Origin: Clostridiaceae bacterium
GTDB lineage: Bacteria; Bacillota; Clostridia; Peptostreptococcales; T1SED10-28
Direction: 5' to 3'
Length of the DNA: 64,000 bases
NCBI GenBank assembly: GCA_003554105.1
Contig: PWFQ01000006.1
Location: 3,036-67,035, forward strand
Below the pieces are notes generated by a model, which saw nothing but the letters and a program-made list of their open reading frames with translations, was not told the DNA's origin and made no database searches. A program made the position numbers and the translations under genes. Shown here in pieces: positions 1 through 13,484 of the stretch. Numbering within the stretch: the stretch's first letter is position 1; every line of letters starts with the position of its first letter.

Positions 1-1392
1 ATTGAGGAACTGGGTAAAGAGCAAAATGATGTCTTCCCGACGTTCTCTCAAGGGAGGCAGGTCCAACTGAACGACATTCAGTCGATAGAACAAGTCCTCC
101 CGGAAGAGACCCTCTTTGATCATTTCATCAAGATCCTTGTTCGTTGCGGCGATAATTCTTGAATCCACTTCAATCGTATTACTTGATCCGATCCTTGTAA
201 CTTTGCCCTCTTGCAGCACGCGCAGAAGTTTTCCCTGATGCTCAAGGGGGAGATCCCCAATTTCGTCTAAAAAGAGAGTTCCGTTATTGGCCAGTTCATA
301 ATATCCGACCTTTCCGTTTTTCAAAGCTCCTGTAAAGGCTCCCCCTGCATAACCGAAAAACTCACTTTCAAAAAGAGTGTCGGGTATTGCACTACAGTTT
401 ACCGGGACAAAGTGCCCTTTTCGAGCACTGCTTTGATGAATGGATTTTGCAAAGACCTCTTTCCCTGTACCGCTTTCTCCAGTGATGAGAATATTTGCAT
501 CGGTGCGAGACGATTTTTTAGCCACTTGAATGAGGTTTTGCATAATGGGGTTTTTACCCTGGACATGTCCGAGGGAAAAGAAATCCTTGGTCATTTTATC
601 AATTTCCTCTTTTAGAAGATCCAGTTGGCTACTGGCACTATCCAGTTGATTTACCAGGTTTGTATATTCGGTGACATTTTTTTCGGTTGCCACAACTCCA
701 AGAAACTCTCCTTCGATAAAGACCGGGAGGGCACTGATAATGATATGATAACCGGGTTTCGGTGAATGATATGCATTTTTGATGGCTACTTTTTCCTCAA
801 GAACAGAAAGAATCAATGCACCGGGGAAAAAGTCGCTCAAAGGCTTGTAGAGAATTTTATCTGCAGGGATTCCATAAAGCTCTTCGGCATTCCTATTCCA
901 GAAAATCACATTGCCTTCCCGATCGGTGACTGTAATTGCTTCGTGCATGCTATCCATAATATGAACGTACTGATTATTTATGACCCGCATGGTAAGAAGA
1001 TGATGACTGATAATATCATCAAACCGAATGATTCCAACAACCTCATGATCCTCGTAAATCGGAAGACGGCCAATATTGTATTTGATAAGAAGTTCTTTTG
1101 CAGTGGTAATTGCTTGGGATGAATCAATGGTAATCACATGAGGGTTCATGTACGAGGAGATTGGAAGATCTAAATCTTTTCGCTGTTTTTTTAAGTTCGA
1201 TACGTCGGTGAGGGTCAAAATCCCCAACAACCGTTCGCGGTTATGGTGATGATCCACCACCAGGACTTCCTGAAAATTCTCGAAAAGCATTGTTTCAATG
1301 ACTTCAATAGTGACGGTTTCCGGGGAGACCTTTAAATAGTTTTCTGAAGCAGCTTCTTTTACTGTATACTTCAATAATTGATTTTCAAACAA
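1..1392 (-). CDS. sigma-54-dependent transcriptional activator (CBS-like + PAS-like sensor, AAA+ core); C-terminus lies beyond the window edge
   Basis: Absent from the ORF track because it is truncated. My minus-strand translation from TTG 1392 (AGGAG 9 nt upstream) stays open to base 1. It shows ILITGESGTGKE (Walker A), ESEFFGYAGGAFTGA (GAFTGA sigma-54 contact loop), TLFLDEIGDL (Walker B) and FREDLFYRLNV. The N-terminal part is CBS-like and PAS-like (ITVTDREGNVIFWN). Confidence 0.85.
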   Translation of the reverse strand, partial: MFENQLLKYTVKEAASENYLKVSPETVTIEVIETMLFENFQEVLVVDHHHNRERLLGILTLTDVSNLKKQRKDLDLPISSYMNPHVITIDSSQAITTAKELLIKYNIGRLPIYEDHEVVGIIRFDDIISHHLLTMRVINNQYVHIMDSMHEAITVTDREGNVIFWNRNAEELYGIPADKILYKPLSDFFPGALILSVLEEKVAIKNAYHSPKPGYHIIISALPVFIEGEFLGVVATEKNVTEYTNLVNQLDSASSQLDLLKEEIDKMTKDFFSLGHVQGKNPIMQNLIQVAKKSSRTDANILITGESGTGKEVFAKSIHQSSARKGHFVPVNCSAIPDTLFESEFFGYAGGAFTGALKNGKVGYYELANNGTLFLDEIGDLPLEHQGKLLRVLQEGKVTRIGSSNTIEVDSRIIAATNKDLDEMIKEGLFREDLFYRLNVVQLDLPPLRERREDIILLFTQFLN

Positions 1393-1497
1393 AAGTATCA
1401 CTCCTAAGGGACCAAGTTACTGAGTTGCCTGCAAGCTATCAGAAATATTTGTAAAAAAAAGATACTTTATTAGTATATATCGATTATCATAAAAAAT

Positions 1498-1565
1498 CAA
1501 TGACTCAACAAAAAGAAAAACAGGCAATGACTAAAAGTTGACAGATGACGAAAAATTGACGCATG
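1498..1565. promoter_or_regulatory. candidate enhancer (UAS) for the sigma-54 activator: cluster of TGAC-containing repeats
   Basis: CAATGACT occurs at 1498-1505 and 1525-1532. Near-identical 14-mers AAAGTTGACAGATG (1534-1547) and AAAATTGACGCATG (1552-1565) start 18 bp apart. The cluster lies about 190-250 bp upstream of the -24/-12 element. Confidence 0.3.
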
Positions 1566-1751
1566 TTCGAAGAGCAGACTTAGCAATATACATAGGATTG
1601 CAGAAAATGAAGAGGGAATTAATGTCGATATACTGACTTCTCTGAACAGGTTTTGAGACGGAGGAAATGAAAGATTAAGGCGCGTAAGCTGCATTTTAGA
1701 ACAGAGAATTACAGACATTAAATCGTCAGAATCCTTTGAAATAATAGAAAC

Positions 1752-1767
1752 TGGCATTATCCTTGCT
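1752..1767 (+). promoter_or_regulatory. sigma-54 (-24/-12) promoter
   Basis: TGGCAT-TATCC-TTGCT matches the consensus TGGCAC-N5-TTGC with correct GG/GC spacing. It sits 57 nt upstream of ATG 1824 and faces away from the divergent sigma-54 activator gene. Confidence 0.75.
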
Positions 1768-1823
1768 TATAATAAGGGTAGACAATGGTTTTAAGAATTA
1801 AACTTTGAATAGGAGGAGAACAC

Positions 1824-2972
1824 ATGGTAAAAACTGCGGAAGTGGTCATAATAGGAGGAGGGATATCAGGATGTGCCATCGCTTACAACCTTGCGAAAAA
1901 GGGTGTGAAGGATGTGGTGGTCATCGAGAAAGGTTATCTGGCCTCCGGTGCAACCGGAAGCTGCGGGGCAGGTATTCGTCAACAGTGGGGAACGGAGATG
2001 AACTGTAAAATTGCAAAAATGTCCTGTGAATTTTTTGAAACTGCCAATGAAGAACTGCAATATGACGGTGATATTGAATTTAAGCAGGGCGGCTACTTAT
2101 TGTTGGCCAGTACTGATAAAGAACATGAACAGTTTAAGAAGAATGTGGAATTGCAAAACTCTTTAGGAATTCATTCAAGAATGCTTAATCTTGATGAGGC
2201 AAAAAAGATTGTCCCCCATTTAAACACTGAGGGTCTTGTCAGTACTGCATTTTATGAAAAAGACGGACATTTAAATCCGTTTCATGCTACAGAGGCTTAC
2301 GGTAAAGCCGCGGAGCGCTTAGGCGCAAAAATTTATAAGTATACTGAAGTAACGGGTATAGAAGTGGAAAACGGCAGAGTGAAAAAAGTCAAGACAGACA
2401 AAGGGGATATTGAGACGAAGGTTGTCGTAAATGCCGCAGGTGGTCATTCCCAAGTTATAGCTGAAATGGCCGGTGTAGATATTCCTGTTTATTCTGAAAG
2501 ACACCAGATTTTAGTCACAGAACCACTTGAACCATTACTTGAGCCAATGTTAATGTCATTTTCGTTAAATATCTACTGTCAGCAGGTACCCCATGGAGGT
2601 TTTATTATGGGACGGGGAGATGATACCGAACCGAGAGATTTAAGAGTCACATCAAGTTGGCAATTTCTCGATGAGATGATTAAAACCGCAACCAGGGTTT
2701 TGCCTCCTCTTAAAAAAGCAAGACTTCTTCGGCAATGGGCAGGACTTTATAATATGACTCCCGACCGGCAACCGATTTACGGGAAGGTCGATGAAGTGGA
2801 AGGATTTTATCTTGCGGTCGGATTCAGCGGACACGGCTTCATGTTCGGACCGGCAACCGGGCTTTTGATGGCAGAATATATTCTTGGAGAAGAGCCGACA
2901 ATCAACATTGACATGTTAGGTCTGAAACGATTTGAATCGGGAGATCTGATTCTGGAACCGTCAGTCGTTTAA
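1824..2972 (+). CDS. FAD-dependent oxidoreductase, DAO family (sarcosine oxidase beta / HcnC / proline dehydrogenase beta-like subunit)
   Basis: 382 aa with an AGGAGG SD. N-terminal VVIIGGGISGCAIAYNLAKKG dinucleotide fold; overall DAO-like layout. Confidence 0.85.
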   Translation: MVKTAEVVIIGGGISGCAIAYNLAKKGVKDVVVIEKGYLASGATGSCGAGIRQQWGTEMNCKIAKMSCEFFETANEELQYDGDIEFKQGGYLLLASTDKEHEQFKKNVELQNSLGIHSRMLNLDEAKKIVPHLNTEGLVSTAFYEKDGHLNPFHATEAYGKAAERLGAKIYKYTEVTGIEVENGRVKKVKTDKGDIETKVVVNAAGGHSQVIAEMAGVDIPVYSERHQILVTEPLEPLLEPMLMSFSLNIYCQQVPHGGFIMGRGDDTEPRDLRVTSSWQFLDEMIKTATRVLPPLKKARLLRQWAGLYNMTPDRQPIYGKVDEVEGFYLAVGFSGHGFMFGPATGLLMAEYILGEEPTINIDMLGLKRFESGDLILEPSVV

Positions 2973-3013
2973 TACATCATCGATCGATAAAATTCAGGTA
3001 AGGAGTGAAAAAC

Positions 3014-3316
3014 ATGAGAATTGAAGACCATCCCGTTTTAGAGTTCAAGCGAGGAAAAAAAATATCTTTCACTTATAATGGCGAGAAGGTGGAGGGTTAT
3101 GAGGGAGAAACGATCGCAGCAGCATTGCATGCAGCGGGAGTACAAGTATTAAGCTACAGTGATCGGCATCGCCCCCGGGGATTCTACTGTGCTATCGGAA
3201 ACTGTTCCTCCTGTTTTATGGAGGTTAACGGAGAAAGCAACGTGAAAGTATGCATTGAACCCCTACAGGAAGGAATGGACGTTAAAACCCAAAAAGGAAA
3301 GGGTGAAATCGTATGA
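3014..3316 (+). CDS. (2Fe-2S)-binding small subunit (HcnA / SoxA N-terminal-like)
   Basis: ATG 3014 lies 8 nt after AAGGAG; the track start at 3005 is a GTG inside the SD. Motif RGFYCAIGNCSSCFMEVNGESNVKVC. The stop overlaps the next start (ATGA). Confidence 0.8.
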   Translation: MRIEDHPVLEFKRGKKISFTYNGEKVEGYEGETIAAALHAAGVQVLSYSDRHRPRGFYCAIGNCSSCFMEVNGESNVKVCIEPLQEGMDVKTQKGKGEIV

Positions 3317-4422
3317 AGAACGTAGAATTATTGGTGATCGGTGGAGGACCGGCAGGTCTGTGCGCAGCAATCAGTGCTGCTGAAGCTGGGGTAGATGTTT
3401 TATTGGCGGAAAGAGACGAATGGCTGGGAGGCCAACTGGTAAAACAGACTCATATGTTTTTCGGATCGGAAAAACAGCACGCCTCCGTCCGTGGAGTGGA
3501 TATCGGAAAATTGTTGGTCAAAAAAGTGGAAGAGTATAAAAACGTTGAAGTAATGAAAAACGCTACGGTTTTAGGACTTTATGAAGATCGGGTGGTTACC
3601 ATTCAACAGGACGGAAACTACGTAAAAGTAAATCCGAAGTCAGTGATTATCACAACCGGTGCAAGTGAAAAAACCCTTGTCTTCCCCAACAATGATCTGC
3701 CGGGAGTCTACGGTGCAGGGGCAGTTCAAACTCTTATGAATGTTTACGGAGTGAAGCCCGGAAACAAAGTACTTATGGTAGGGGCAGGAAATATCGGACT
3801 GATTGTAAGTTATCAACTAATGCAGGCAGGAGTCGACGTTGAAGCAATCGTGGATGCATCACCGAATATAGGAGGCTACCTGGTGCATGCGTCGAAAATT
3901 CGACGGATGGGAGTTCCGATTTTAACCCGTCACACTGTAAAAGAAGCCATCGGAAAAGAAGCTTTGGAAGCTGCGGTAATATGGGAACTGGATGACAAAT
4001 GGCAACCGATCCCCGGAAGCGAACAAAAACTGGATGTTGACGTTATGTGTATCTCGGTGGGACTTACCCCCCTTTCCGAACTGTTATGGCAAATCGGCTG
4101 TAAAATGGAATTTGTTGGTGAGCTTGGAGGCTTTGTACCGACACGAAGTGATAAACTGCAAACTTCCCTGGACGGAATTTTTGTAGCAGGAGATGTTGCA
4201 GGGGTTGAAGAAGCAAGTAGTGCCATGGTGGAAGGGAGCTTGGCGGGACTCTCCGCATCTTCATATTTAGGATATAAAATTGATGTGGTGAAAGAGCTGG
4301 AAAGAGACTATCTGAATCAGTTAAATGACTTACGATCCGGTCCGGTAGGAGAAAAAATCCGGCAGGGACTTGCAAAAGCTTTAATCAGCGAACAAGCTGC
4401 TAATCCGGGTCAAGGCTCATAA
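3313..4422 (+). CDS. NAD(P)/FAD-dependent oxidoreductase (HcnB / alpha-subunit-like, pyridine nucleotide-disulfide type)
   Basis: 369 aa with two Rossmann motifs: LLVIGGGPAGLCAAISAAEAG and VLMVGAGNIGLIVSYQLMQAG. Translationally coupled to the upstream gene. Confidence 0.85.
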   Translation: MKNVELLVIGGGPAGLCAAISAAEAGVDVLLAERDEWLGGQLVKQTHMFFGSEKQHASVRGVDIGKLLVKKVEEYKNVEVMKNATVLGLYEDRVVTIQQDGNYVKVNPKSVIITTGASEKTLVFPNNDLPGVYGAGAVQTLMNVYGVKPGNKVLMVGAGNIGLIVSYQLMQAGVDVEAIVDASPNIGGYLVHASKIRRMGVPILTRHTVKEAIGKEALEAAVIWELDDKWQPIPGSEQKLDVDVMCISVGLTPLSELLWQIGCKMEFVGELGGFVPTRSDKLQTSLDGIFVAGDVAGVEEASSAMVEGSLAGLSASSYLGYKIDVVKELERDYLNQLNDLRSGPVGEKIRQGLAKALISEQAANPGQGS

Positions 4423-4435
4423 AGGAGGAGAAAAG

Positions 4436-5221
4436 ATGTTAGAAAAAACAGGAGTACCTACAAAAGAACAAATTGATAGTGCCTTTCCGTCAGAGGAACG
4501 AATGAAAAAAGGACCGTTTGTGGTTGTGGAATGTTTCCAGAAGATCCCCTGCAACCCATGTTTTACAGCATGTAATCGTGACGGGATCAAAGCCTTTGAA
4601 GATATAAACGATCTGCCCGATGTCGATCATGACAACTGTAACGGATGCACTCTTTGTGTCAGTAAGTGTCCGGGTCTTGCCATTTTTGTTGTGGACATGA
4701 CTTATTCAGAAGATAAGGCGTTATTGAAAATCCCATACGAATTTTTACCGTTGCCCCAGGAAGGGGACCGGGTGATGGGACTCAGTCACGGGGGAGAAGA
4801 AGTGGAAAAGGTGGAAGTGATAAAAGTGCAAAATCCCAAAGGATTTGATAAAACTCCGGTGATTTCCCTTGCCGTCAGCAAAGACAAAGTTAAGGTAATA
4901 AGATCCATCAAAGTGCCAAAGGAGCGAGACCGATCGGAAGATGAAATCGTCTGCCGATGTTCCGATGTGACCCTTGAAGAGGTTAGAGAACTGATCCGTA
5001 CAGGGCACACCACCTTTGATGAAATCAAAAAGATCAGTCGTATCGGTATGGGTCCCTGTCAGGGAAGAACCTGCAGTCAACTGGTCATCAGGGAAATTGC
5101 AAGTATTACAGGCCAAGACCCGTCGAGCTTGTTACCGGGGACCTACAGACAGATCGTAAAATCCCTTGAAATGGGAAAAGTCATCGAAGCCCTTGAAAAG
5201 GAAGAACAGGAGAATAAGTAA
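4436..5221 (+). CDS. iron-sulfur subunit: N-terminal 4Fe-4S ferredoxin-type + C-terminal BFD-like [2Fe-2S] domain
   Basis: 261 aa with an AAAGGAGG SD. Motifs CNPCFTAC, CNGCTLCVSKCP and CRCSDVTLEEV...GMGPCQGRTC. Confidence 0.75.
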   Translation: MLEKTGVPTKEQIDSAFPSEERMKKGPFVVVECFQKIPCNPCFTACNRDGIKAFEDINDLPDVDHDNCNGCTLCVSKCPGLAIFVVDMTYSEDKALLKIPYEFLPLPQEGDRVMGLSHGGEEVEKVEVIKVQNPKGFDKTPVISLAVSKDKVKVIRSIKVPKERDRSEDEIVCRCSDVTLEEVRELIRTGHTTFDEIKKISRIGMGPCQGRTCSQLVIREIASITGQDPSSLLPGTYRQIVKSLEMGKVIEALEKEEQENK

Positions 5222-5353
5222 AAATCAGTTCATAATGCTGAAAAATGAAAGAATCTTTGTTATACTGTAAACAAGATGAATTTTATTATGCTCAGGGGTT
5301 TCAGGGTACCTCTGGGCATCATCATGAGACTATAATAAAAAAAGAGGTGAAGG

Positions 5354-5752
5354 ATGAACATGAAAAAACTGGAAAAGTATGAAGAGAAGTGTATTGAATG
5401 TCATGCCTGTGAAGATGTTTGTGCAAAAACTTACTTCAAATCAGAAGACCGGGGAAAGTCCAGAATTGTCATCAACGAAGAGCTTGATGAAAAAGGTCAG
5501 AAAATTAACGTCTGCAATCAATGCGGAGAATGTATGGAAGTCTGTCCCGAGCTGGCCCTGACCAGAGACAAAAAAGGAGTAGTGCGGCTAGACAAAGACA
5601 AATGCGTTGAATGTCTGATCTGTGTCGGATTTTGTCCGTATCTTTCAATGAGAGTGCATAAAGATCTCCTCGAACCTTTCAAATGTATTGCCTGTGGACT
5701 CTGTGCCAAAGAATGTCCCACTGAGGCCATTGAAATCGTAGAGACTGTTTAG
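5354..5752 (+). CDS. ferredoxin with four [4Fe-4S] binding motifs (AorA-like electron-transfer subunit)
   Basis: 132 aa with four CxxCxxCxxxC(P) motifs: CIECHACEDVC, CNQCGECMEVCP, CVECLICVGFCP and CIACGLCAKECP. ATG 5360 is an alternative start. Confidence 0.85.
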   Translation: MNMKKLEKYEEKCIECHACEDVCAKTYFKSEDRGKSRIVINEELDEKGQKINVCNQCGECMEVCPELALTRDKKGVVRLDKDKCVECLICVGFCPYLSMRVHKDLLEPFKCIACGLCAKECPTEAIEIVETV

Positions 5753-5790
5753 GATAAATCGTAATTCAATAGAATGGAAAAGGAGATGAG

Positions 5791-7983
5791 ATGATGTCAG
5801 TTGTAATCGCAAAAGAACGAGTGGAAGAGATGAAGAATAACCGTAAGGTGTTAAAAGCCTTGGAATATACTCCGACGAAGGTGAATAGAGGGTATACCGA
5901 CAAGACTTTATATATTAACTTAACTGACAACCAGGTGGAGTTTAGGGATATTCCTGAAATGGTGAAAGAGAAATTTATTGGGGGAAAAGGGTATGGTCTG
6001 TGGCATCTATGGAATGGAATTAAAGATGACACGAAGTGGAATGATCCCGAGAATGAAATTGTGATTTCTCCGGGACCGATTGCTGGAATTACCCAGTACC
6101 CCGGAGCAGGAAAATCCTTAGTTGTGAGCATCTCCCCAATCACAGGAACGGTTATTGACAGTAATGTGGGCGGACACTTTGGTCCTCTTATGAAGTTTTC
6201 AGGATTTGATGCACTGGAAATTCAAGGGAAAGCGGAAAAGGATGTGGTGGTGTTTATCGATGGAAATAAAGGAACGATCTCCATTGAGGAAGCACCGGTG
6301 GAAACCATCGACAGCCATATTCTTGCAGAAGAGTTAACGGAAATGTACGCAGATGATGAAGAAGACAAGCGACATATCTCTGTGGTCTCTTCGGGTCAAG
6401 CTGCAGAGCATAGTTATATCGGATTATTGAACTTCAGTTTTTATGATAAGCGGAAAAAAGCCCAACGGTTAAAACAAGCGGGTCGCGGTGGAATCGGTAC
6501 TGTGTTCAGAGATAAAAAAATCAAAGCCCTGATTGTGAAGTATAAAGGCGTAAAAGGTGACAGCAATCATCCAGCCGATGTTGAAAAAATTAAGCAGGTT
6601 GGGATGAAGCTTCATAAGGAAGTCCATGACTTTGACGATGAGCAATGCCAAATGAGACAGGTGGGAACGGCAAATCTCTTCGAAACTATGAGCGATTATG
6701 ATCTGCTTCCTGTAAACAACTTCCAGTACGGATCTCATAAGGATGCTGCCGCTACTGGCGGACGAGCTGCCCTTAAAAAGGTCTTGCAGCAGAATGAGCC
6801 AGACGGATGTTGGTTCGGATGTTCAATGTCCTGTGCGAAGTCTGCAGTGGAGTACGAGCTTCAAACCGGACCTTATAAAGGACAGAAGGTCGTTGTTGAT
6901 GGACCTGAATATGAGACCATCGCAGGGGTTGGAAGCAACTGTGGAATCTTCGACATCGATTATGTATTGGAATGTAATTTCTACTGTGACACCTATGGAG
7001 TGGACACGATCTCCTTCGGTACATTAACCGCCTTCGCCATGGAATGCTATGAGCGGGGAGTAATCGATAAGGAAGTTACCGGCGGTTTGGAGATGACCTT
7101 CGGAAATAAAGATGCTGCAATGGAGCTCCTGCACCAGATGGCAAGAGGTGAAGGATTTGGTGTGGTTGCTGGCAAAGGTGTGCGGGCAATGAGAGAACTT
7201 TTCGTCAAAGAGTACGGAGCAGATGAAAACCTGCTTTTGGATATCGGAATGGAATCAAAGGGACTTGAGTATTCTCAATATGTTTCAAAGGAATCTTTAG
7301 CACAGCAGGGTGGTTACGCATTAACCAATAAAGGTCCTCAGCATGATGAGGCATGGTTGATTTTTATGGATATGGTGAATAATCAAATTCCGACCTTTGA
7401 TGACAAAGCGGAAGCTCTTCACTACTTCCCAATGTTCAGAACCTGGTTTGGTCTTCAGGGTCTCTGTAAATTGCCATGGAATGACGTTGAGCCCATAAGC
7501 AACAGAGACATCGAAGGACCGGAAGCAGCCAAGGTTCCCGAACATGTACAGAACTATGTTGACCTGTACAATGCGGTGACGGGTAACAATATTGATAAGC
7601 AGGAAATGATTCTTCAATCGGAAAGAGTCTATAACTTCCAAAAGGTTTTTAACATCCGTCTCGGTGTCGTGGGAATTGAAGGAGACCGGGCACCATACCG
7701 TTCCGTCGGGCCGGTAACGAAGGAAGAATATCTATCGCGGGAAGATCGATATGACAAACAAATGAAAGAAAAGATCGGTGTTGATCCTGAAGGAAAAAGC
7801 GTAGAGGAGAAAATGGCGATCACAAGAGAATTCAGAGAGTCACAATTCGCTCAGCTGCGGGATACGGTCTATAAGCGTAGAGGATGGACTGTTGAAGGAA
7901 TTCCTACACTTGAGCATCTTCAAAATATCGGCATGGACCTTCCTGAAGTGATGGAAGTAGTAAAGCCCTACTTGAGCAAGTAA
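5791..7983 (+). CDS. aor: aldehyde:ferredoxin oxidoreductase family (tungstopterin enzyme)
   Basis: 730 aa. AOR hallmarks are KFIGGKGYGLW near the N-terminus, DGPEYETIAGVGSNCGI and a C-terminal YKRRGW...GIPT. Confidence 0.9.
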   Translation: MMSVVIAKERVEEMKNNRKVLKALEYTPTKVNRGYTDKTLYINLTDNQVEFRDIPEMVKEKFIGGKGYGLWHLWNGIKDDTKWNDPENEIVISPGPIAGITQYPGAGKSLVVSISPITGTVIDSNVGGHFGPLMKFSGFDALEIQGKAEKDVVVFIDGNKGTISIEEAPVETIDSHILAEELTEMYADDEEDKRHISVVSSGQAAEHSYIGLLNFSFYDKRKKAQRLKQAGRGGIGTVFRDKKIKALIVKYKGVKGDSNHPADVEKIKQVGMKLHKEVHDFDDEQCQMRQVGTANLFETMSDYDLLPVNNFQYGSHKDAAATGGRAALKKVLQQNEPDGCWFGCSMSCAKSAVEYELQTGPYKGQKVVVDGPEYETIAGVGSNCGIFDIDYVLECNFYCDTYGVDTISFGTLTAFAMECYERGVIDKEVTGGLEMTFGNKDAAMELLHQMARGEGFGVVAGKGVRAMRELFVKEYGADENLLLDIGMESKGLEYSQYVSKESLAQQGGYALTNKGPQHDEAWLIFMDMVNNQIPTFDDKAEALHYFPMFRTWFGLQGLCKLPWNDVEPISNRDIEGPEAAKVPEHVQNYVDLYNAVTGNNIDKQEMILQSERVYNFQKVFNIRLGVVGIEGDRAPYRSVGPVTKEEYLSREDRYDKQMKEKIGVDPEGKSVEEKMAITREFRESQFAQLRDTVYKRRGWTVEGIPTLEHLQNIGMDLPEVMEVVKPYLSK

Positions 7984-8010
7984 AAGCTGTTGATGAAAAC
8001 ATTGGATATT

Positions 8011-8039
8011 GGGGCGGAGTTGAGACTTCGCCCCTTTTC
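8011..8039 (+). terminator. rho-independent terminator after aor
   Basis: GGGGCGGAGT / ACTTCGCCCC stem (one mismatch), TGAG loop, then TTTT. Confidence 0.6.
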
Positions 8040-8083
8040 ATGTTAGAATGGTTTTAGATAGAGGATACAATAGAGGTGATAGA

Positions 8084-8281
8084 ATGATTCAGGTAAACGG
8101 AAGAAATCACGAATGGTATGAAGGAATGACAATTGAAAGCCTTTTAAAAGATCTGAACTACACCTACCCGATTTTGGTGATACGGATCAACGGAACATTA
8201 ATTGATAAAGAAGACTATTCTGCAACCAAAGTACAGAAGGGTGACGATGTGAAAATCATCCATCCTATTGCCGGAGGTTAA
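8084..8281 (+). CDS. ThiS/MoaD-family sulfur-carrier protein (C-terminal Gly-Gly)
   Basis: 65 aa from ATG 8084 (AGAGGTGA SD). Starts MIQVNG, ends DDVKIIHPIAGG-stop, which is the ThiS-like pattern. The track start at 8048 is probably too far upstream. Confidence 0.75.
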   Translation: MIQVNGRNHEWYEGMTIESLLKDLNYTYPILVIRINGTLIDKEDYSATKVQKGDDVKIIHPIAGG

Positions 8282-8293
8282 AGGAGGGTTATT

Positions 8294-8584
8294 GTGAAAA
8301 TCAAAAAAATTTCTGACTGGTTAAGAAACTATGTGGAAAATCATGGAGGTTGTCTGTGGATTGAGGAGCGAAATGTCATTAAAGGATGATGAATGGTTTT
8401 TAAAGGACCATCAGGTTTGGTGGTAAAACCGGAAGGAAATAAGGAATGGATTGAAGCAACCGTTGAAGGAAAAGACTTGAAATTCTTTCTGGACAAGGAA
8501 TTATGGGAAAATGTCAAGGAGAAAAAGGCGATAACCATGCATCTGGAAGGATATGGGCGGTTTGTTCTTGAAATTGAGACTTAG
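8294..8584 (+). CDS. HesB/IscA-like small protein with in-frame TGA-TGA (candidate selenoprotein); alternatively two coupled sORFs, 8294..8392 and 8393..8584
   Basis: GTG 8294 follows a strong AAGGAGGG SD. The frame reads 31 codons, then TGA TGA (8387-8392), then ATG 8393 in the same frame for 63 more codons. The joined 96 aa follow a HesB-like pattern. Confidence 0.45.
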
Positions 8585-8611
8585 AGAGGATCTGCTCTCT
8601 AAGTTTTTTTA
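8581..8611 (+). terminator. rho-independent terminator
   Basis: TTAGAGAG / CTCTCTAA perfect 8-bp stem, 6-nt loop, followed by G + T7. Confidence 0.7.
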
Positions 8612-8678: not shown

Positions 8679-11600
8679 ATGGCGAAGATTCGACTTCGAC
8701 TTTTTGGTCCACCGGAGATTTATAAAAATGATGAAAAAGTGTTTTTACCCTATCGTAAGGCAGAGGCGCTTTTTTACTATCTAGTGATTCAAAAACAGGC
8801 AACGAGAGAGGAACTCGTAGGCCTTTTTTGGGGTGAAATCCAGGATGAACTGGCGAAGAAAAATCTTCGGAATGCCATGTATAAAATTCGTAAAGCCTTT
8901 GACATGGAGGTGATTCACTCGCCTCAAAAATCCATTGTTCTCTTAAACGATGAAATATCAATTATCTCGGATTACCATCAGATAATGAAGAATCCTTCTG
9001 AAATGACGGATCTTTATCGTGGAGAATTCTTAAAAGGCTTCTCTGTCAAAGATGAAGCAATGTTTTCTCATTGGCTGGAAAATCAAAGGACCCTTTTCGA
9101 AAGCCAATATATTTCAGTGCTTTATAAGGAAGTGGAAAAAGCAACTAAACAAAAAGATTTTCATATGGGCGAAAAAATAAGCAAGGAAATTATCGAGCAG
9201 GATCCCTATGATGAGAGAGCCTATCGTTTATTAATGAATGTGTATGACGAATTTTCCCTTCCAAACAAAGGATTGGAAGTTTTTCAAAACCTTGCCCGTT
9301 TTTTGGAAGAAGAGTTGGGAGTGGAGCCTTCAGAGGATACACGACGTCTCTATAGGCGTATGCAGAAAGAACAACAGCAAAGGAAAGTAGAAGGAACAAA
9401 GAAAAAGAAGTCCTTTTACTTTGGCCGGGAGAGGGAATTAGAACAGATTCGAAGAGGTTTATTTGAGGATGTTAAAGGGGACGGAAAGACCTTTGTATTG
9501 ATTCAGGGAGAAGCGGGGATCGGTAAAACCTCTATTGTTGAACATCTCTTCGAAGAGTTTCAAGAGGAAGGGTTTCTGGTTTTTCAAACGGAATGCTTCG
9601 GTGCAGAGAAGAATTATATACTCAAGCCCTGGAATCCCATCATCTCTCAACTTATTCCCTATATTGAAAAGCAGAAAATAAAAATTCAATCTCCCTGGGG
9701 GAATGTTTTAAAAAGAGCCTTTCCCCAGCTGCAAACCTGGGATCATGAAGGGGGAGGAGAATATATTGATGGAAGTGTAGCCGGCAAGGTTGAGGATCAG
9801 CTCATTGAAGAGGGGATTGTTGAGGTTTTTCGCCACATCCAAGGCTCAGGGAAAGTGTTATTAATTTTTGAGGACTTACAGTGGATTGATGAAAAAAGCC
9901 TTCGACTGCTGACAAATTTGATGCTAAAATATCCAAAGAACCGGTTGAGGGTATTGGCAACATATCGAGGAGGGGATCGTCGGGATGTGGATCTTTTTCT
10001 TTCCCTTGCATATCAAAAGGGGATCCTGGAAAAGCTGGAACTAAAAAGATTTACAAGGGAAGAGACAAAAAATCTTGTAGAAAATTATCTTCTTTATTCC
10101 GAGGATAAAAAGACCTTAAAAGGGTTAAGCGATCTATCGGAGGGTTTTGATCAAATTTATGAGGAAACCGAAGGAAATCCTTTTTTTCTGATGGAGTATT
10201 TGAATCGAATCGGGAAAAGTCAGGGACAGAATACTCATGGACCCAAGGAGGAAGACCTTTTGAGAAGCCGTTTTGTCAACCTTTGTCAACAAGCGGAGGA
10301 AGTGGCGGAATTAACGGCACTCTTTTTTGATAAGGCCGAAATGAAAGAACTGATCAATCTTATGAGTCTTTCTGAATCCACGTTGATTGACCGCTTGGAG
10401 AACTTAATCAATGAGGGAATCCTCAAGGAGGAAGCCTCGGGAGAAAATATCTACTATCGTTTTACCCATCAAAAACTCCGGGAGTACTGTTATGATAAAC
10501 AAAGCAAAGCAAGACGAAGGCATTCTCACCGGAGAATCGGCGAATATATGGAAAACAGGCTGGGAAATAATTGGGAGGACCATATGCTTTTTTCCAAGCT
10601 CATCTACCATTTTGAACGGGCGGGGCATTATAAAAAAGCTCTCAATTACAGCATTCAAAACTTGAAATATTATGTAGACTTTAGTCATGAACTGTTTCCT
10701 GTCTTAGAGGAAAAAGGGAATCAGGATGATCACCCATACTACTTATCGAAGCATCAAATTATCAAAGAACTGGAAGATATGGGGGAGTTGCTGGAAAAAG
10801 CAAAAAGGGGAGTCAACGGAACAGAGGATCTTTACGAGGAGGAAGTATACTTCCGTTACATCAAGGGAAGGTATCTTATTCGTCGTGGAGATTATGACGC
10901 AGGCATGGAAGAAATAAATCGTATTATTTCTTTAGCTGAAAAGCAAAAGGATTACAGAAGCCTGATTAAAGCATATAAACAGAAGGTTTACTATGGGATT
11001 CAAACCTATCAAAGAGACACCATGAAAGAAAACCTCGAGTTGGGATTCAGGAACCTCAAGATGATTGATTATCCTAAAGAAGAAGCGGTATATTATCGGT
11101 TGTTTGGTCTATATCACATGATGATGGAGAACTACGAGCAGGCTGATGAAACCTTGAGATACTCAATCCGTCTTTTTAATCAGATTCCCGGAGATCAAGG
11201 GAAATATAAGCTGAACATTGCTGCCGGCTATAATTATCTTGGTGAAATTCGACGCATTCAAATGAAGTTCTTTGAAAGTCTTAAGTATTACGATCAAGCA
11301 ATTAAAATTTGTGAGGATCAGGAAATTTTTCGGGGGCTGAATGTTTTTTACACAAAAGCAGGGCAAGCAGCATTTGACGGAGGAGACTTTCTGCGGGCGA
11401 AAAACTATTTTGTGAAAGCCTTGAATCTCTATGGAAAAGAAGATGCGCTTTGGGGACGGTCCATTGCGGAAGGATTTATGGCATTGATTCTGTTCCGGGA
11501 GGAGATGTACGAATCATCATTGAAGTGTCTTAAAAACGCTGAGAAATTCAGCATAAAAATGAAAAATCCCTATGAGTTGGGGATTGTTTATCGGATAAAA

Positions 11601-11780
11601 AGCGGAATCAAACGGGAAATGATGAGTAAGCGGGTGATCCCCTCCTTTTATCGTCAAGCTCTTTCAAAGGATTTGTCCTACTATTGCAAGAAGGGAATCG
11701 AGAATCTGAATCAGGTTGATGGAAACTATGAAATTCATATTCTCAGACGATTAGACGCTTTAGCGACGATAAAGAGTTAA
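8679..11780 (+). CDS. SARP/AfsR-type regulator: winged-helix + BTAD domain, P-loop NTPase (STAND-like), C-terminal TPR-like repeats
   Basis: 1033 aa. N-terminus IRLRLFGPPEIYKNDEKVFLPYRKAEALFYYL...; BTAD-like ERAYRLLMNVY...LEEELGVEPSEDTRRLY. Walker A is IQGEAGIGKTS and Walker B is LLIFEDLQWID. The C-terminal half is long and helical-repeat. Confidence 0.8.
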   Translation: MAKIRLRLFGPPEIYKNDEKVFLPYRKAEALFYYLVIQKQATREELVGLFWGEIQDELAKKNLRNAMYKIRKAFDMEVIHSPQKSIVLLNDEISIISDYHQIMKNPSEMTDLYRGEFLKGFSVKDEAMFSHWLENQRTLFESQYISVLYKEVEKATKQKDFHMGEKISKEIIEQDPYDERAYRLLMNVYDEFSLPNKGLEVFQNLARFLEEELGVEPSEDTRRLYRRMQKEQQQRKVEGTKKKKSFYFGRERELEQIRRGLFEDVKGDGKTFVLIQGEAGIGKTSIVEHLFEEFQEEGFLVFQTECFGAEKNYILKPWNPIISQLIPYIEKQKIKIQSPWGNVLKRAFPQLQTWDHEGGGEYIDGSVAGKVEDQLIEEGIVEVFRHIQGSGKVLLIFEDLQWIDEKSLRLLTNLMLKYPKNRLRVLATYRGGDRRDVDLFLSLAYQKGILEKLELKRFTREETKNLVENYLLYSEDKKTLKGLSDLSEGFDQIYEETEGNPFFLMEYLNRIGKSQGQNTHGPKEEDLLRSRFVNLCQQAEEVAELTALFFDKAEMKELINLMSLSESTLIDRLENLINEGILKEEASGENIYYRFTHQKLREYCYDKQSKARRRHSHRRIGEYMENRLGNNWEDHMLFSKLIYHFERAGHYKKALNYSIQNLKYYVDFSHELFPVLEEKGNQDDHPYYLSKHQIIKELEDMGELLEKAKRGVNGTEDLYEEEVYFRYIKGRYLIRRGDYDAGMEEINRIISLAEKQKDYRSLIKAYKQKVYYGIQTYQRDTMKENLELGFRNLKMIDYPKEEAVYYRLFGLYHMMMENYEQADETLRYSIRLFNQIPGDQGKYKLNIAAGYNYLGEIRRIQMKFFESLKYYDQAIKICEDQEIFRGLNVFYTKAGQAAFDGGDFLRAKNYFVKALNLYGKEDALWGRSIAEGFMALILFREEMYESSLKCLKNAEKFSIKMKNPYELGIVYRIKSGIKREMMSKRVIPSFYRQALSKDLSYYCKKGIENLNQVDGNYEIHILRRLDALATIKS

Positions 11781-11838
11781 AATGGGAACAATAAATACAC
11801 CTCGCTTTTTAAAGCAAGGAGGATGAGGAGGATTCTGA

Positions 11839-13359
11839 GTGATAAAAATTGATGGAAATCATTTAAGTTTGGAGCAATTTGCGGACGTGGTCCTGCAAGG
11901 ACAGGAAGTGGCATTGGAAGTTGGAGCCATTGAAAAAGTTCACCGGGCAAGGGATCTTGTTAACCGGTATGTTGAGGAGGAACGGGTTTCCTATGGAATC
12001 ACCACCGGTTTTGGGAAATTCAGTGATGTGGTGATTTCAAAGGAAGAGACGGAGGAGCTGCAGAGGAATCTGATTATCAGCCATGCCTGTGGCATAGGCG
12101 ATCCTTTCTCAGAAGAAGAAACCCGGGGAATTATGCTTCTTCGTGCCAATGCCTTGGCGAAAGGATTCTCAGGAGTTCGTCTGAAGGTGATTGAAACACT
12201 GTTGAAAATGCTCAATAAGCGGGTGCATCCCATCATTCCGGAAAAAGGGTCTTTAGGTGCCAGCGGGGATCTTGCACCTCTTTCCCATATGGTCCTGGTC
12301 ATGATTGGTGAGGGAGAAGCGATCTACAACGGGTCTCTCATGAGCGGAAAAGAAGCCATGGAGAAAGCGGGCATTGAAACAATCGTATTAACTGCCAAAG
12401 AGGGTCTCGGACTGATCAATGGTACTCAGGCGATGACTTCAGTGGGAGCTCTTACCTTATACAGAGGGATACAACTGTCGAAAATTGCAGATATTTCTTC
12501 CGCTCTTACCGTGGAAGCGCTAAATGGAATTATTGATGCCTTTGATCCAAAGGTTCATGAAGTTCGACCCCACAGCGGTCAAATTACAACAGCATCCAAT
12601 TTACTTCGTTTGCTTGATGAGAGTCAATTAACCACCCATCAGGGTGAAATGCGGGTTCAAGATCCCTATACTTTACGATGCTTACCGCAAATCCATGGAG
12701 CAACCAAGGATGCTTTGGCATTTATCAAAGAAAAAGTTGAAATCGAAATGAATGGAGTGACTGACAATCCTCTCATTTTTACAGAGGAGGACCAGGTCAT
12801 TTCCGGAGGGAATTTCCACGGTCAACCTATGGCACTGCCCTTCGATTTTCTAGCCATTGCACTTGCAGAACTTGCAAACGCAGCTGAGCGGAGAATTGAG
12901 CGACTGGTAAATCCTCAGCTCAGCGGTCTTCCTGCTTTTCTAACGGAAAAGGGAGGTCTTCATTCCGGCTTGATGATTGCTCAATACTCTGCAGCGGCCC
13001 TGGTTTCTGAAAACAAGATCCTGGCCCATCCTGCCAGTGTAGATTCAATTCCTTCTTCAGCAAATCAGGAGGATCATGTAAGCATGGGAACCATTGCCGC
13101 AAGGAAAGCGAGAGAGATCGCTTTCAATACTTCGAGGGTTCTGGGAATAGAATTGATGACAGCAGCCCAGGCCATTGAGTTTAAGGAATCAAAGGAGTTG
13201 GGCAAAGGAACCATGATCGCATATAAAACTCTCAGAAAGTCATTAAAACCCCTTAAAGAAGACCGGATTCTCTACCGGGATATCAATATTGCCTCGGAAA
13301 TGATTGATAACAATCAAATTCTCAATGCAGTGGAAGAAACTGTGGGATCCCTGGATTAA
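11839..13359 (+). CDS. hutH: histidine ammonia-lyase
   Basis: 506 aa. GTG start after GAGGAGG. MIO-forming GSLGASGDLAPLSH, YGITTGFGKFSD and NLIISHACG. Confidence 0.9.
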   Translation: MIKIDGNHLSLEQFADVVLQGQEVALEVGAIEKVHRARDLVNRYVEEERVSYGITTGFGKFSDVVISKEETEELQRNLIISHACGIGDPFSEEETRGIMLLRANALAKGFSGVRLKVIETLLKMLNKRVHPIIPEKGSLGASGDLAPLSHMVLVMIGEGEAIYNGSLMSGKEAMEKAGIETIVLTAKEGLGLINGTQAMTSVGALTLYRGIQLSKIADISSALTVEALNGIIDAFDPKVHEVRPHSGQITTASNLLRLLDESQLTTHQGEMRVQDPYTLRCLPQIHGATKDALAFIKEKVEIEMNGVTDNPLIFTEEDQVISGGNFHGQPMALPFDFLAIALAELANAAERRIERLVNPQLSGLPAFLTEKGGLHSGLMIAQYSAAALVSENKILAHPASVDSIPSSANQEDHVSMGTIAARKAREIAFNTSRVLGIELMTAAQAIEFKESKELGKGTMIAYKTLRKSLKPLKEDRILYRDINIASEMIDNNQILNAVEETVGSLD

Positions 13360-13364
13360 GCAAA

Positions 13365-13404
13365 AAACCCTTATCGGCTATTTTTAAAGGATAAGGGTTT
13401 TTTC
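13365..13404 (+). terminator. rho-independent terminator after hutH
   Basis: AAACCCTTATC / GATAAGGGTTT 11-bp stem followed by a T-run. Confidence 0.7.
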
Positions 13405-13484
13405 ATGGAAATTGTTCGGATCAACGGTCTCGGGGAAAAGGGTATGATATAATAAAAAGAACTATACAAAAGAGGTGATTTCCC

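Follow-up and report, generated by a model that had tools for sequence, protein, structure and literature searches.

In a 64-kb window of contig PWFQ01000006.1 from a Clostridiaceae bacterium (the window being the whole stretch analysed), we investigated a run of genes that follows a sigma-54 promoter and encodes a heteromeric iron-sulfur (Fe-S) flavoprotein dehydrogenase and an aldehyde oxidoreductase of the WorS-WorL type (WorSL), from the tungsten-containing oxidoreductases (WORs). Genes were assigned from Pfam and NCBIfam profile matches, a list of open reading frames (ORFs) and comparison with protein chains in the PDB. Judging from the genes and their neighbourhoods, this is probably a proline-induced operon by which a strict anaerobe oxidises proline to glutamate, with WorSL replacing the usual dehydrogenase for 1-pyrroline-5-carboxylate (P5C). 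The original prediction for this DNA had coupled the oxidation of a secondary amine or amino acid to the oxidation of the resulting aldehyde. This idea is supported and can be narrowed to proline; the conserved linkage of the two sets of genes, and the exchange of WorSL for a P5C dehydrogenase, match the proposed aldehyde step. Proline is favoured among the candidate substrates, over sarcosine, opines or chemistry like that of HCN synthase.

In the proposed pathway, a CBS-PAS activator would sense proline or a close relative and open the promoter at 1752-1767. An Fe-S flavoprotein of archaeal type would then, on the evidence of homology and context, oxidise L-proline to P5C, with Fe-S clusters and a second flavin passing the electrons on to NAD(P)+, ferredoxin or both. 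P5C is in non-enzymatic equilibrium with glutamate gamma-semialdehyde, which is established chemistry. WorL, with one 4Fe-4S cluster and either tungsten or molybdenum in its pterin cofactor, would oxidise the semialdehyde to glutamate, passing electrons via the four clusters of WorS to ferredoxin. Using WorSL in place of an NAD-dependent P5C dehydrogenase would save low-potential electrons at the ferredoxin level. WorX, a small sulfur carrier presumed to act in maturation of the pyranopterin cofactor, would help to build it, and a Na+-dependent transporter and a proline-racemase-family protein, encoded to the left of the window, probably supply the substrate.

Conserved linkage and exchange of modules

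Linkage was examined in one genome per GTDB species, with searches seeded from WorL (the 80 best loci, 62-71% identity) and from the DAO-family flavoprotein of the dehydrogenase (80 loci, 58-93% identity). With WorL as the seed, the dehydrogenase genes lie immediately 5' of WorS-WorL in 20 of the 80 loci; the rest hold WorS-WorL or WorL alone. With DAO as the seed, four or five dehydrogenase genes occur together in every locus, in the order Fer2_4, Pyr_redox_2, Fer4, BFD/A3, DAO. The DAO gene is followed by a WorS-WorL pair of WOR clade 7 in 27 loci (plus one at a contig end), by a different WorS-WorL pair, 28-29% identical, in four, and by an aldehyde dehydrogenase (ALDH) in 11. Once overlaps were removed, the dehydrogenase is followed by clade-7 WorSL in 44 distinct species-representative contigs, which span several orders of Bacillota as well as Calditrichales and Mycoplasmatota. 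Cultured candidate carriers are Geosporobacter ferrireducens (IRF9), Anaerosolibacter carboniphilus and Alkaliphilus pronyensis. The order seen in the window, in which DAO comes first and the activator gene diverges, is common only to its closest relative (L081). Since this order differs from that of the other relatives, the linkage has survived rearrangement.

A second WOR clade, 27-29% identical to the window's WorL, occupies the WorSL position in eight contigs. Searches seeded with this clade gave six loci, all arranged as activator-dehydrogenase-WorS'-WorL', and second-clade loci include those of Desulforamulus aeronauticus and D. putei. In every locus recovered, these two cultured species included, the second clade is found only directly 3' of the same dehydrogenase genes. 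The presence of two such distant WOR lineages at one position would be hard to explain without a functional tie. Linkage of the dehydrogenase with the aldehyde oxidoreductase gene was the key test of a coupled pathway, and the support for it is strong (44 genomes, plus eight with the second clade). The second-clade enzymes are themselves ~615-620 residues long and have their own WorS and a MoaD-like gene (L123, L124/L177, L126/L178, L156, L179-L182).

The ALDH found in place of WorSL in 11 loci is an L-glutamate gamma-semialdehyde (P5C) dehydrogenase, scoring 794 bits on TIGR01236 (cutoff 614). Because WorSL is exchanged with this enzyme after the same dehydrogenase genes, we take WorSL to be its likely substitute. 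PutP is encoded upstream in two of the 11 loci (TIGR02121, 646 bits vs a cutoff of 515), and 2-oxoacid:ferredoxin oxidoreductase genes lie 3' in the ALDH loci L147 and L153.

Other neighbours of clade-7 WorSL belong to the same part of metabolism. In six loci it lies beside a glycyl radical enzyme and an activase; the glycyl radical enzyme in Desulfosporosinus (L043) is HypD, with 1108 bits to 6VXC vs 562 for the next structure. HypD is trans-4-hydroxy-L-proline dehydratase, and its product is P5C. In Syntrophomonadaceae, genes of the OCD/mu-crystallin and proline racemase families and a Liv-type transporter occur beside clade-7 WorSL; a P5C dehydrogenase adjoins clade-7 WorL in Bacteroidota loci; and proA-proB(-proC) follow worL/worX in relatives from Geosporobacter and Anaerosolibacter. 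Among the 52 WorL-seeded loci that reach 15 kb, 24 have one or more proline or P5C markers. A published neighbourhood table lists Pro_dh, P5C dehydrogenase and a set of DAO, OCD and class III aminotransferase for clade 7 (PMC13328260).

We also repeatedly observed M24 peptidases with a creatinase/prolidase N-terminal domain and CstA peptide transporters beside WorL or the dehydrogenase genes (L028, L031, L032, L130, L139, L144; L007, L011, L024). These hint that proline-containing peptides are the natural feed.

The DNA to the left of the window can be read from contigs that encode an identical DAO protein. There, an NSS-family Na+ transporter gene and a proline-racemase-family gene adjoin the activator; the latter scores 469 bits as a proline racemase (cutoff 556) and 306 as a hydroxyproline epimerase. 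Upstream of these two lies a gene for a GrdB/F/H-type selenoprotein B with an in-frame UGA (TST-U-GTCTRC; L160, 2-1066). Its relatives, 66-86% identical and paired with a GrdG/E-like gene, occur at a Thermoanaerobacterium dehydrogenase locus and in the metagenome-assembled genome (MAG) Ch29, where the copy is near an OCD-family gene; GrdB-type loci are found at L164 180-974, L165 8439-10795 and L151 754-3800. Ordinary GrdB proteins are only 51-55% identical to the gene left of the window. This GrdB-type reductase may act on a different substrate and accept the electrons released when proline is oxidised. The possibility that a prd (D-proline reductase) operon flanks the activator was rejected; the gene is of the GrdB/F/H type and reaches only 62 bits on the PrdB model.

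Subunits of the two enzymes and their regulation

Among all PDB chains, the best match to the DAO-family protein is 1Y56_B, the beta subunit of the Pyrococcus horikoshii L-proline dehydrogenase (E 1.5e-88, 300 bits, 42% identity); sarcosine oxidase beta scores 174 bits at 34% identity. The Fer2_4 subunit has four cysteines (Cys62/67/70/83) and aligns to the N-terminal region of the SoxA-family model; its longest ORF begins at 3005, and public gene calls place the start at 3014. The Pyr_redox_2 protein, with Rossmann motifs GGGPAG and GAGNIG, likely carries FAD and an NAD(P)/adenine-nucleotide site, and is most similar, among solved structures, to sarcosine oxidase alpha and 1Y56_A (residues 109-273). 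In the next protein, eight cysteines are available for two 4Fe-4S clusters, and the C-terminal BFD/A3 part aligns to 1Y56_A residues 395-488; most relatives have the ferredoxin-like and BFD/A3 domains as separate genes (~165 and ~95 residues).

Since these pieces match the SoxA and 1Y56_A cores as well as residues 395-488 of 1Y56_A, Fer2_4, Pyr_redox_2 and BFD/A3 together appear to form a split alpha subunit, with the 2x[4Fe-4S] domain as an extra. The DAO protein would play the part of the beta subunit in a heteromeric L-proline dehydrogenase, its activity on L-proline being predicted from context. These subunits were originally described as having the composition of heteromeric amino- and imino-acid dehydrogenases. 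This stands as far as the archaeal proline dehydrogenases are concerned, but the resemblance to the HCN synthase HcnABC is limited to shared Pfam domains; no HcnC family is among the 25 best NCBIfam matches shown for DAO.

WorS has four CxxCxxCxxxC motifs, is matched by Pfam Fer4 in four stretches and precedes WorL in most related loci. WorL matches AFOR_N (E 6e-49) and AFOR_C (E 3e-97). Aligned to 1AOR, the aldehyde:ferredoxin oxidoreductase (AOR) of Pyrococcus furiosus (PfAOR), it is identical at the equivalents of the catalytic residues Thr243, Glu313, Tyr427 and His448, listed as such in PMC13328260, and the equivalents of Cys288/291/295/494, for one 4Fe-4S cluster, are conserved. Its 730 residues make it ~110-125 longer than the solved AORs (604-623). 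WorX scores 58.6 bits on the thiS model (cutoff 37.5) and has homologues in more than 80 fetched loci, most of which bear WorL; where the position was checked, the gene lies 3' of worL. No tupABC or modABC genes were found among the annotated ORFs of the window.

The WorL of the window was provisionally assigned to clade 7 through its relatives in Thermotalea metallivorans and Geosporobacter subterraneus, which are 66-68% identical to it and have CladeID 7 in the supplement of PMC13328260 (clades from the tree of Schut et al. 2021, as used there). The supplementary table shows the same neighbourhood for these relatives, on which the text of the paper is silent. In that paper, clade 7 holds Class I and II enzymes, with no characterised member named, and accounts for ~19% of Tup-normalised WORs in human gut genomes, while a physiological role is defined for only 5/92 WOR clades. 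WorX is named and discussed, and neither proline nor sarcosine is mentioned (PMC13328260).

The divergent gene encodes a CBS-PAS-AAA+ activator, as originally described: Sigma54_activat matches with E 2.9e-67, two CBS domains and a PAS domain are present, and GAFTGA is found in the translation. The gene is truncated by the window edge. Public gene calls on contigs encoding the identical DAO protein give a full length of 594 residues, and the missing C-terminal 130 residues include HTH_8 at the very end. PrdR is by far the best NCBIfam family (737-781 bits, the runner-up family being at ~340). On the TF_PrdR model (NF041552; cutoff 795), the fragment in the window scores 593 bits, the full-length identical protein 737.5, and full-length activators of related loci 600-781. 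PrdR regulons are described in PMC6615313, and a sigma-54 survey of Clostridiales names only AorR/aor of acetogens and PrdR/prd.

The near-consensus -24/-12 promoter noted previously was upheld, TGGCAT-N5-TTGCT being the only match in the window to the motif TGGCAY-N5-TTGCW (one in 64 kb, vs 0.06 expected by chance); transcription is predicted to start ~12 nt 3' of 1767. The promoter is unchanged in L081, a 93%-related MAG locus; pairwise alignment with this locus gives 84% mean column identity across the divergent region, with fully conserved blocks; short repeats also occur in this region. The motif has 46 matches in 2.66 Mb of related loci, most of them directly 5' of the transporter/racemase/dehydrogenase operon.

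In several relatives, the gap between DAO and worS contains another sigma-54 promoter (L020, 9454; L088, 11629; L089, 11542; L090, 4421; L092, 11536), and L017 (9526) and L030 (7896) have one before a stand-alone worS-worL. WorSL is sometimes a sigma-54 unit of its own. In Anaerovirgula (L095), DAO and worS are separated by an additional activator gene, shorter than the first. Because second sigma-54 promoters precede worS in several relatives, the dehydrogenase and WorSL modules look like one sigma-54 regulon, even when they are separate transcripts. An independent promoter before worS had been named as grounds for refuting the coupled pathway; we reject this, as such promoters in relatives argue for co-regulation.

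Alternative explanations

The proline/P5C couple lies near -120 mV, so the transfer of its electrons to NAD+ or ferredoxin is uphill. The aldehyde/acid couple lies near -500 mV under physiological conditions (PMC13328260). As to where the electrons of the first step would go in anaerobes poor in quinones, the ferredoxin-like domain and the NAD-type Rossmann subunit invite speculation about confurcation. The dehydrogenase and the WOR would then be one flavin-based confurcating system in which ferredoxin-level electrons from the oxidation of glutamate semialdehyde, handed over by WorS or by ferredoxin, drive those of proline to NAD+, an idea we consider unlikely.

It is quite unlikely that the dehydrogenase and WorSL make up a single super-complex, that is, one enzyme of a new WOR class. 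Here, WorS would be wired into the Fer4/BFD/Pyr_redox_2 module, and high-potential electrons from proline and low-potential ones from the semialdehyde, the same substrates as proposed above, would be confurcated to NAD+. The tight adjacency and conserved order of DAO, WorS and WorL fit such a complex, as do the ferredoxin-like domain and NAD-type Rossmann subunit of the dehydrogenase and the known role of WorS-type subunits in Class III and IV WORs, where they connect WorL with FAD/NAD modules. The average of the proline and semialdehyde couples is also near the NAD+/NADH potential. However, the complete five-domain dehydrogenase exists with a P5C dehydrogenase and no WOR, and WorSL exists without the dehydrogenase. 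Three genomes (Alkaliphilus transvaalensis, a Tissierella MAG and a Fusibacter MAG) have the two modules on different contigs, and several have a separate worS promoter. The Pyr_redox_2 gene is always accompanied by the DAO, Fer2_4 and Fer4 genes, even when WorSL is missing or a P5C dehydrogenase takes its place; its product is not a dedicated partner of WorSL, and the enzyme does not qualify as a Class III WOR (WorLSN).

The substrate could also be an N-methyl amino acid (sarcosine or dimethylglycine) that is demethylated, in which case WorSL would be a formaldehyde:ferredoxin oxidoreductase. The alpha and beta subunits of sarcosine oxidase are the next-best relatives of the dehydrogenase, GrdB/F- and GrdG-like genes adjoin the cluster in the lineage of the window and in L151, and Pfam finds no GCV_T-type folate-binding domain at the locus, so free formaldehyde would be released. 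Nevertheless, this is very unlikely. DAO reaches only 219 bits on the soxB model (cutoff 529), the soxA model gives 173 (cutoff 1164) over positions 169-487 only, and Pfam finds no further small subunits (SoxD, SoxG) at the locus. The alternative partner of the dehydrogenase is also a P5C dehydrogenase rather than a formaldehyde enzyme, and the contexts with PutP, proline racemase, HypD and OCD indicate the proline/P5C node.

A route through hydroxyproline or a D-imino acid, with an epimerase or racemase and a D-hydroxyproline-dehydrogenase-like complex yielding, once deamination has occurred, alpha-ketoglutarate semialdehyde for WorSL to oxidise, seems extremely unlikely. The HcnABC-like composition does resemble a heteromeric D-hydroxyproline dehydrogenase, the racemase-family gene fails to reach the cutoff for proline racemases, and the HypD neighbours show that these organisms use hydroxyproline. 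Yet the alternative ALDH is of the P5C type and has only 237 bits on the model for alpha-ketoglutarate semialdehyde dehydrogenase, the racemase-family gene scores higher as a proline racemase than as an epimerase, and the D-proline dehydrogenase model gives DAO 33 bits. No candidate for a pyrroline-4-hydroxy-2-carboxylate deaminase was noticed beside the cluster, although no dedicated search was made.

Finally, the broad aldehyde range of characterised WORs and the proA-proB(-proC) genes mentioned above might suggest general aldehyde detoxification, or biosynthetic reduction of glutamate to the semialdehyde for proline synthesis, but these are very unlikely given that two WOR clades are independently joined to the dehydrogenase, that WorSL is exchanged with P5C dehydrogenase, that sigma-54 co-regulation and catabolic-type transporters and regulators accompany the genes, and that the proAB synteny is limited to one family of close relatives.

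Several observations weigh against the catabolism of proline to glutamate by way of WorSL. Neither a WOR nor a P5C dehydrogenase is near the dehydrogenase genes in about 26 loci whose downstream sequence is long enough, and around half of the WorL loci, mostly in Bacteroidota, are accompanied by cofactor-synthesis genes only. The activator does not reach the PrdR equivalog cutoff (795) and is hence PrdR-like, not demonstrably PrdR; similarly, the proline racemase match is below its curated equivalog cutoff. The Grd-type protein B genes that adjoin the cluster in the lineage of the window and in Thermoanaerobacterium could mean N-methyl amino acids. In the window, the structured 132-nt gap before worS is unexplained, and the unfavourable potential of the proline couple adds to these points. 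We infer the substrate, the metal (W or Mo) and the electron acceptors alike.

Layout of the locus and relation to known systems

Table 1. Features of the proposed proline operon and its flanks, with positions in the window
Feature	Position	Strand	Evidence
PrdR-like sigma-54 enhancer-binding protein, N-terminal 464 aa	1..1392	-	Pfam, NCBIfam TF_PrdR
Divergent regulatory region, presumed activator sites (putative)	1393..1751	.	Alignment with L081
Sigma-54 (-24/-12) promoter TGGCATTATCCTTGCT	1752..1767	+	Motif search
DAO-family catalytic flavoprotein, beta-like subunit	1824..2972	+	Pfam DAO, E 2e-79
Small 2Fe-2S subunit (Fer2_4)	3014..3316	+	Pfam, E 6e-30
Two-Rossmann flavoprotein (Pyr_redox_2), alpha-like core	3313..4422	+	Pfam, motifs
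2x[4Fe-4S] ferredoxin-like domain fused to BFD/SoxA_A3, 261 aa	4436..5221	+	Pfam, Cys pattern
11-bp hairpin without U-tract, G+C-rich	5289..5318	+	RNA fold
WorS polyferredoxin, four 4Fe-4S clusters	5354..5752	+	Pfam Fer4, Cys motifs
WorL tungsto(molybdo)pterin aldehyde oxidoreductase, 730 aa	5791..7983	+	AFOR_N, AFOR_C
Intrinsic-terminator-like hairpin between worL and worX	8011..8034	+	Stem and U-run
WorX, ThiS/MoaD-like sulfur carrier, 65 aa, C-terminal GG	8084..8281	+	NCBIfam thiS
Two small same-frame ORFs, 31 aa and 63 aa	8294..8389, 8393..8584	+	ORF list
Intrinsic terminator closing the unit; 13-bp stem then T-run	8576..8607	+	

Eight same-strand genes, the last of them HesB-like, had been described after the promoter (Table 1). 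The first seven hold, but the eighth consists of two small ORFs, separated by an in-frame TGA TGA with an ATG immediately after. A HesB/IscA identity was rejected, as there is no Pfam match even at E<=10, neither for the ORFs of the window nor for those of two relatives joined across the stops. A protein search of 5.8 billion sequences returned only two near-identical 63-residue proteins. The G-stop-stop-M junction (DNA TGATGAATGG) is identical in the distant genomes L090 (7432-7707) and L011 (5502-5765), while the proteins of these genomes are only 31-36% identical. Selenocysteine readthrough was judged unlikely, given two successive UGA codons with an ATG directly next to them. The pair may instead be tightly coupled in translation, or be one protein split on purpose.

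The earlier statement that no terminator is visible before 8011 proved correct; the first convincing plus-strand intrinsic terminator is the hairpin between worL and worX, with a 10-bp stem (7 G-C pairs) followed by UUUUC, and it possibly terminates only partially. The 132-nt gap before worS (5222-5353) folds more stably than shuffled sequence (z = -3.4). It contains no terminator-like site and no sigma-54 motif, and one weak sigma-70-like match (5238-5266). The hairpin in this gap is not a canonical terminator, and may act in processing, in stability or as a site of factor-dependent pausing. Rfam at gathering thresholds has zero matches in the window, leaving the gaps without a riboswitch or known leader.

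On the 3' side of the unit, we find a BTAD-AAA-TPR regulator, hutH, dnaE, pfkA and pyk. With these genes downstream and a uniform G+C content across the window, the label "island" is not borne out; this is ordinary chromosome. Sampling of the remainder of the window for related genes yielded only housekeeping functions. The regulator, a 1033-residue BTAD-AAA_16-TPR (SARP/STAND-type) protein, is immediately 5' of hutH (histidine ammonia-lyase; TIGR01225, 689 bits) at 8679-13359, and a BTAD-type regulator beside hut genes is unusual for Clostridia. In L162 (GCA_001025115.1), the activator (2937-4722) and the BTAD regulator (12014-15116) are each called as two pieces. These are more likely assembly frameshifts than pseudogenes; both genes are intact in the window and other contigs.

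The dye-linked L-proline dehydrogenases of Thermococcales (PH1363/PH1364, 1Y56; the alpha-beta-gamma-delta enzyme of T. profundus) resemble the dehydrogenase most closely, in their beta subunit and in an alpha subunit that corresponds to Fer2_4, Pyr_redox_2 and BFD/A3. We take 1Y56 to be the alpha4beta4 form (PDH1), and the alpha-beta-gamma-delta form with a ferredoxin-like subunit to be a different complex, which corrects the original label of a PDH1-like four-subunit enzyme. Presumably, the ferredoxin-like (~20 kDa) and small (~8 kDa) subunits of this four-subunit form match the Fer4 and Fer2_4 genes found here. In contrast to the archaeal enzyme, the one predicted here is bacterial, has its alpha subunit split into three genes and its A3/BFD part fused to the ferredoxin-like subunit, and is joined to a WOR and controlled by sigma-54. 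HcnABC and the opine and octopine oxidases have the same Pfam set (Fer2_4, Pyr_redox_2 with BFD, DAO), and the UniProt names of the Thermotalea relatives are indeed HcnA/HcnB. Unlike HcnABC, however, the enzyme described here has an extra 2x[4Fe-4S] domain, its closest kin are proline dehydrogenase and sarcosine oxidase, and it occurs in a proline context in strict anaerobes.

The canonical pathway, PutA or proline dehydrogenase (ProDH) with P5C dehydrogenase, has the same proposed chemistry, from proline via P5C/glutamate semialdehyde to glutamate, but both enzymes are non-homologous to those found here. In place of a TIM-barrel ProDH of the PutA type there is a DAO/Sox-type Fe-S flavoprotein, and instead of an NAD-dependent ALDH a tungstopterin enzyme of the AOR family, presumably with ferredoxin as acceptor. 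The Class II WORs (WorLS; GOR of C. bescii, ASOR/WOR5 of P. furiosus) share WorL, WorS and WorX, with the same residues and clusters; new here are the proposed amino-acid semialdehyde substrate and the dedicated pathway context. WorSL is likewise found beside FAD/NAD and Fe-S subunits in AorABC of Aromatoleum aromaticum (Class III) and WorABCSL of Acetomicrobium mobile and Eubacterium limosum (Class IV, bifurcating). The flavin module described here is neither WorN nor BfuABC; it is kin to Sox and proline dehydrogenase, has its own DAO subunit and occurs without a WOR. That the bifurcating WorABCSL enzymes are themselves built on Sox-like subunits is wrong, as WorABC are BfuABC (HydABC-like) proteins. 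As for the activator, PrdR of the Clostridioides difficile D-proline reductase operon has the same domain architecture, but the genes controlled here are oxidative (dehydrogenase and WOR), not prdABDEF.

Full-text literature searches found no paper coupling proline dehydrogenase or P5C with AOR or tungsten enzymes, nor any describing a bifurcating proline dehydrogenase; the paper on the C. sticklandii genome has no bearing on the question. The components are known families; a WOR acting as a P5C/glutamate-semialdehyde oxidase, and hence a role for clade 7, appears undescribed, as does the wide spread of this dehydrogenase in anaerobic Bacillota.

The neighbourhood pattern gives clade 7 a specific and testable function, the oxidation of glutamate gamma-semialdehyde/P5C, in the context of proline, hydroxyproline and ornithine catabolism in strict anaerobes. 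If true, this would be the first physiological role for a large uncharacterised clade of tungsten enzymes, and would explain how proline can be a donor in anaerobes that use it mainly as a Stickland acceptor. Electrons at the aldehyde level would be captured on ferredoxin rather than lost to NAD+, and part of anaerobic amino-acid catabolism would depend on tungsten supply. The archaeal family of heteromeric proline dehydrogenases would also extend to many Bacillota, and more pathways would come under PrdR-type sigma-54 activators. Should the unlikely idea of confurcation also hold, quinone-free strict anaerobes could oxidise proline to glutamate with a new type of bifurcating enzyme on the sarcosine-oxidase/HcnABC scaffold, and WOR clade 7 would be the P5C-oxidising enzyme of anaerobes, including gut Bacteroidales.

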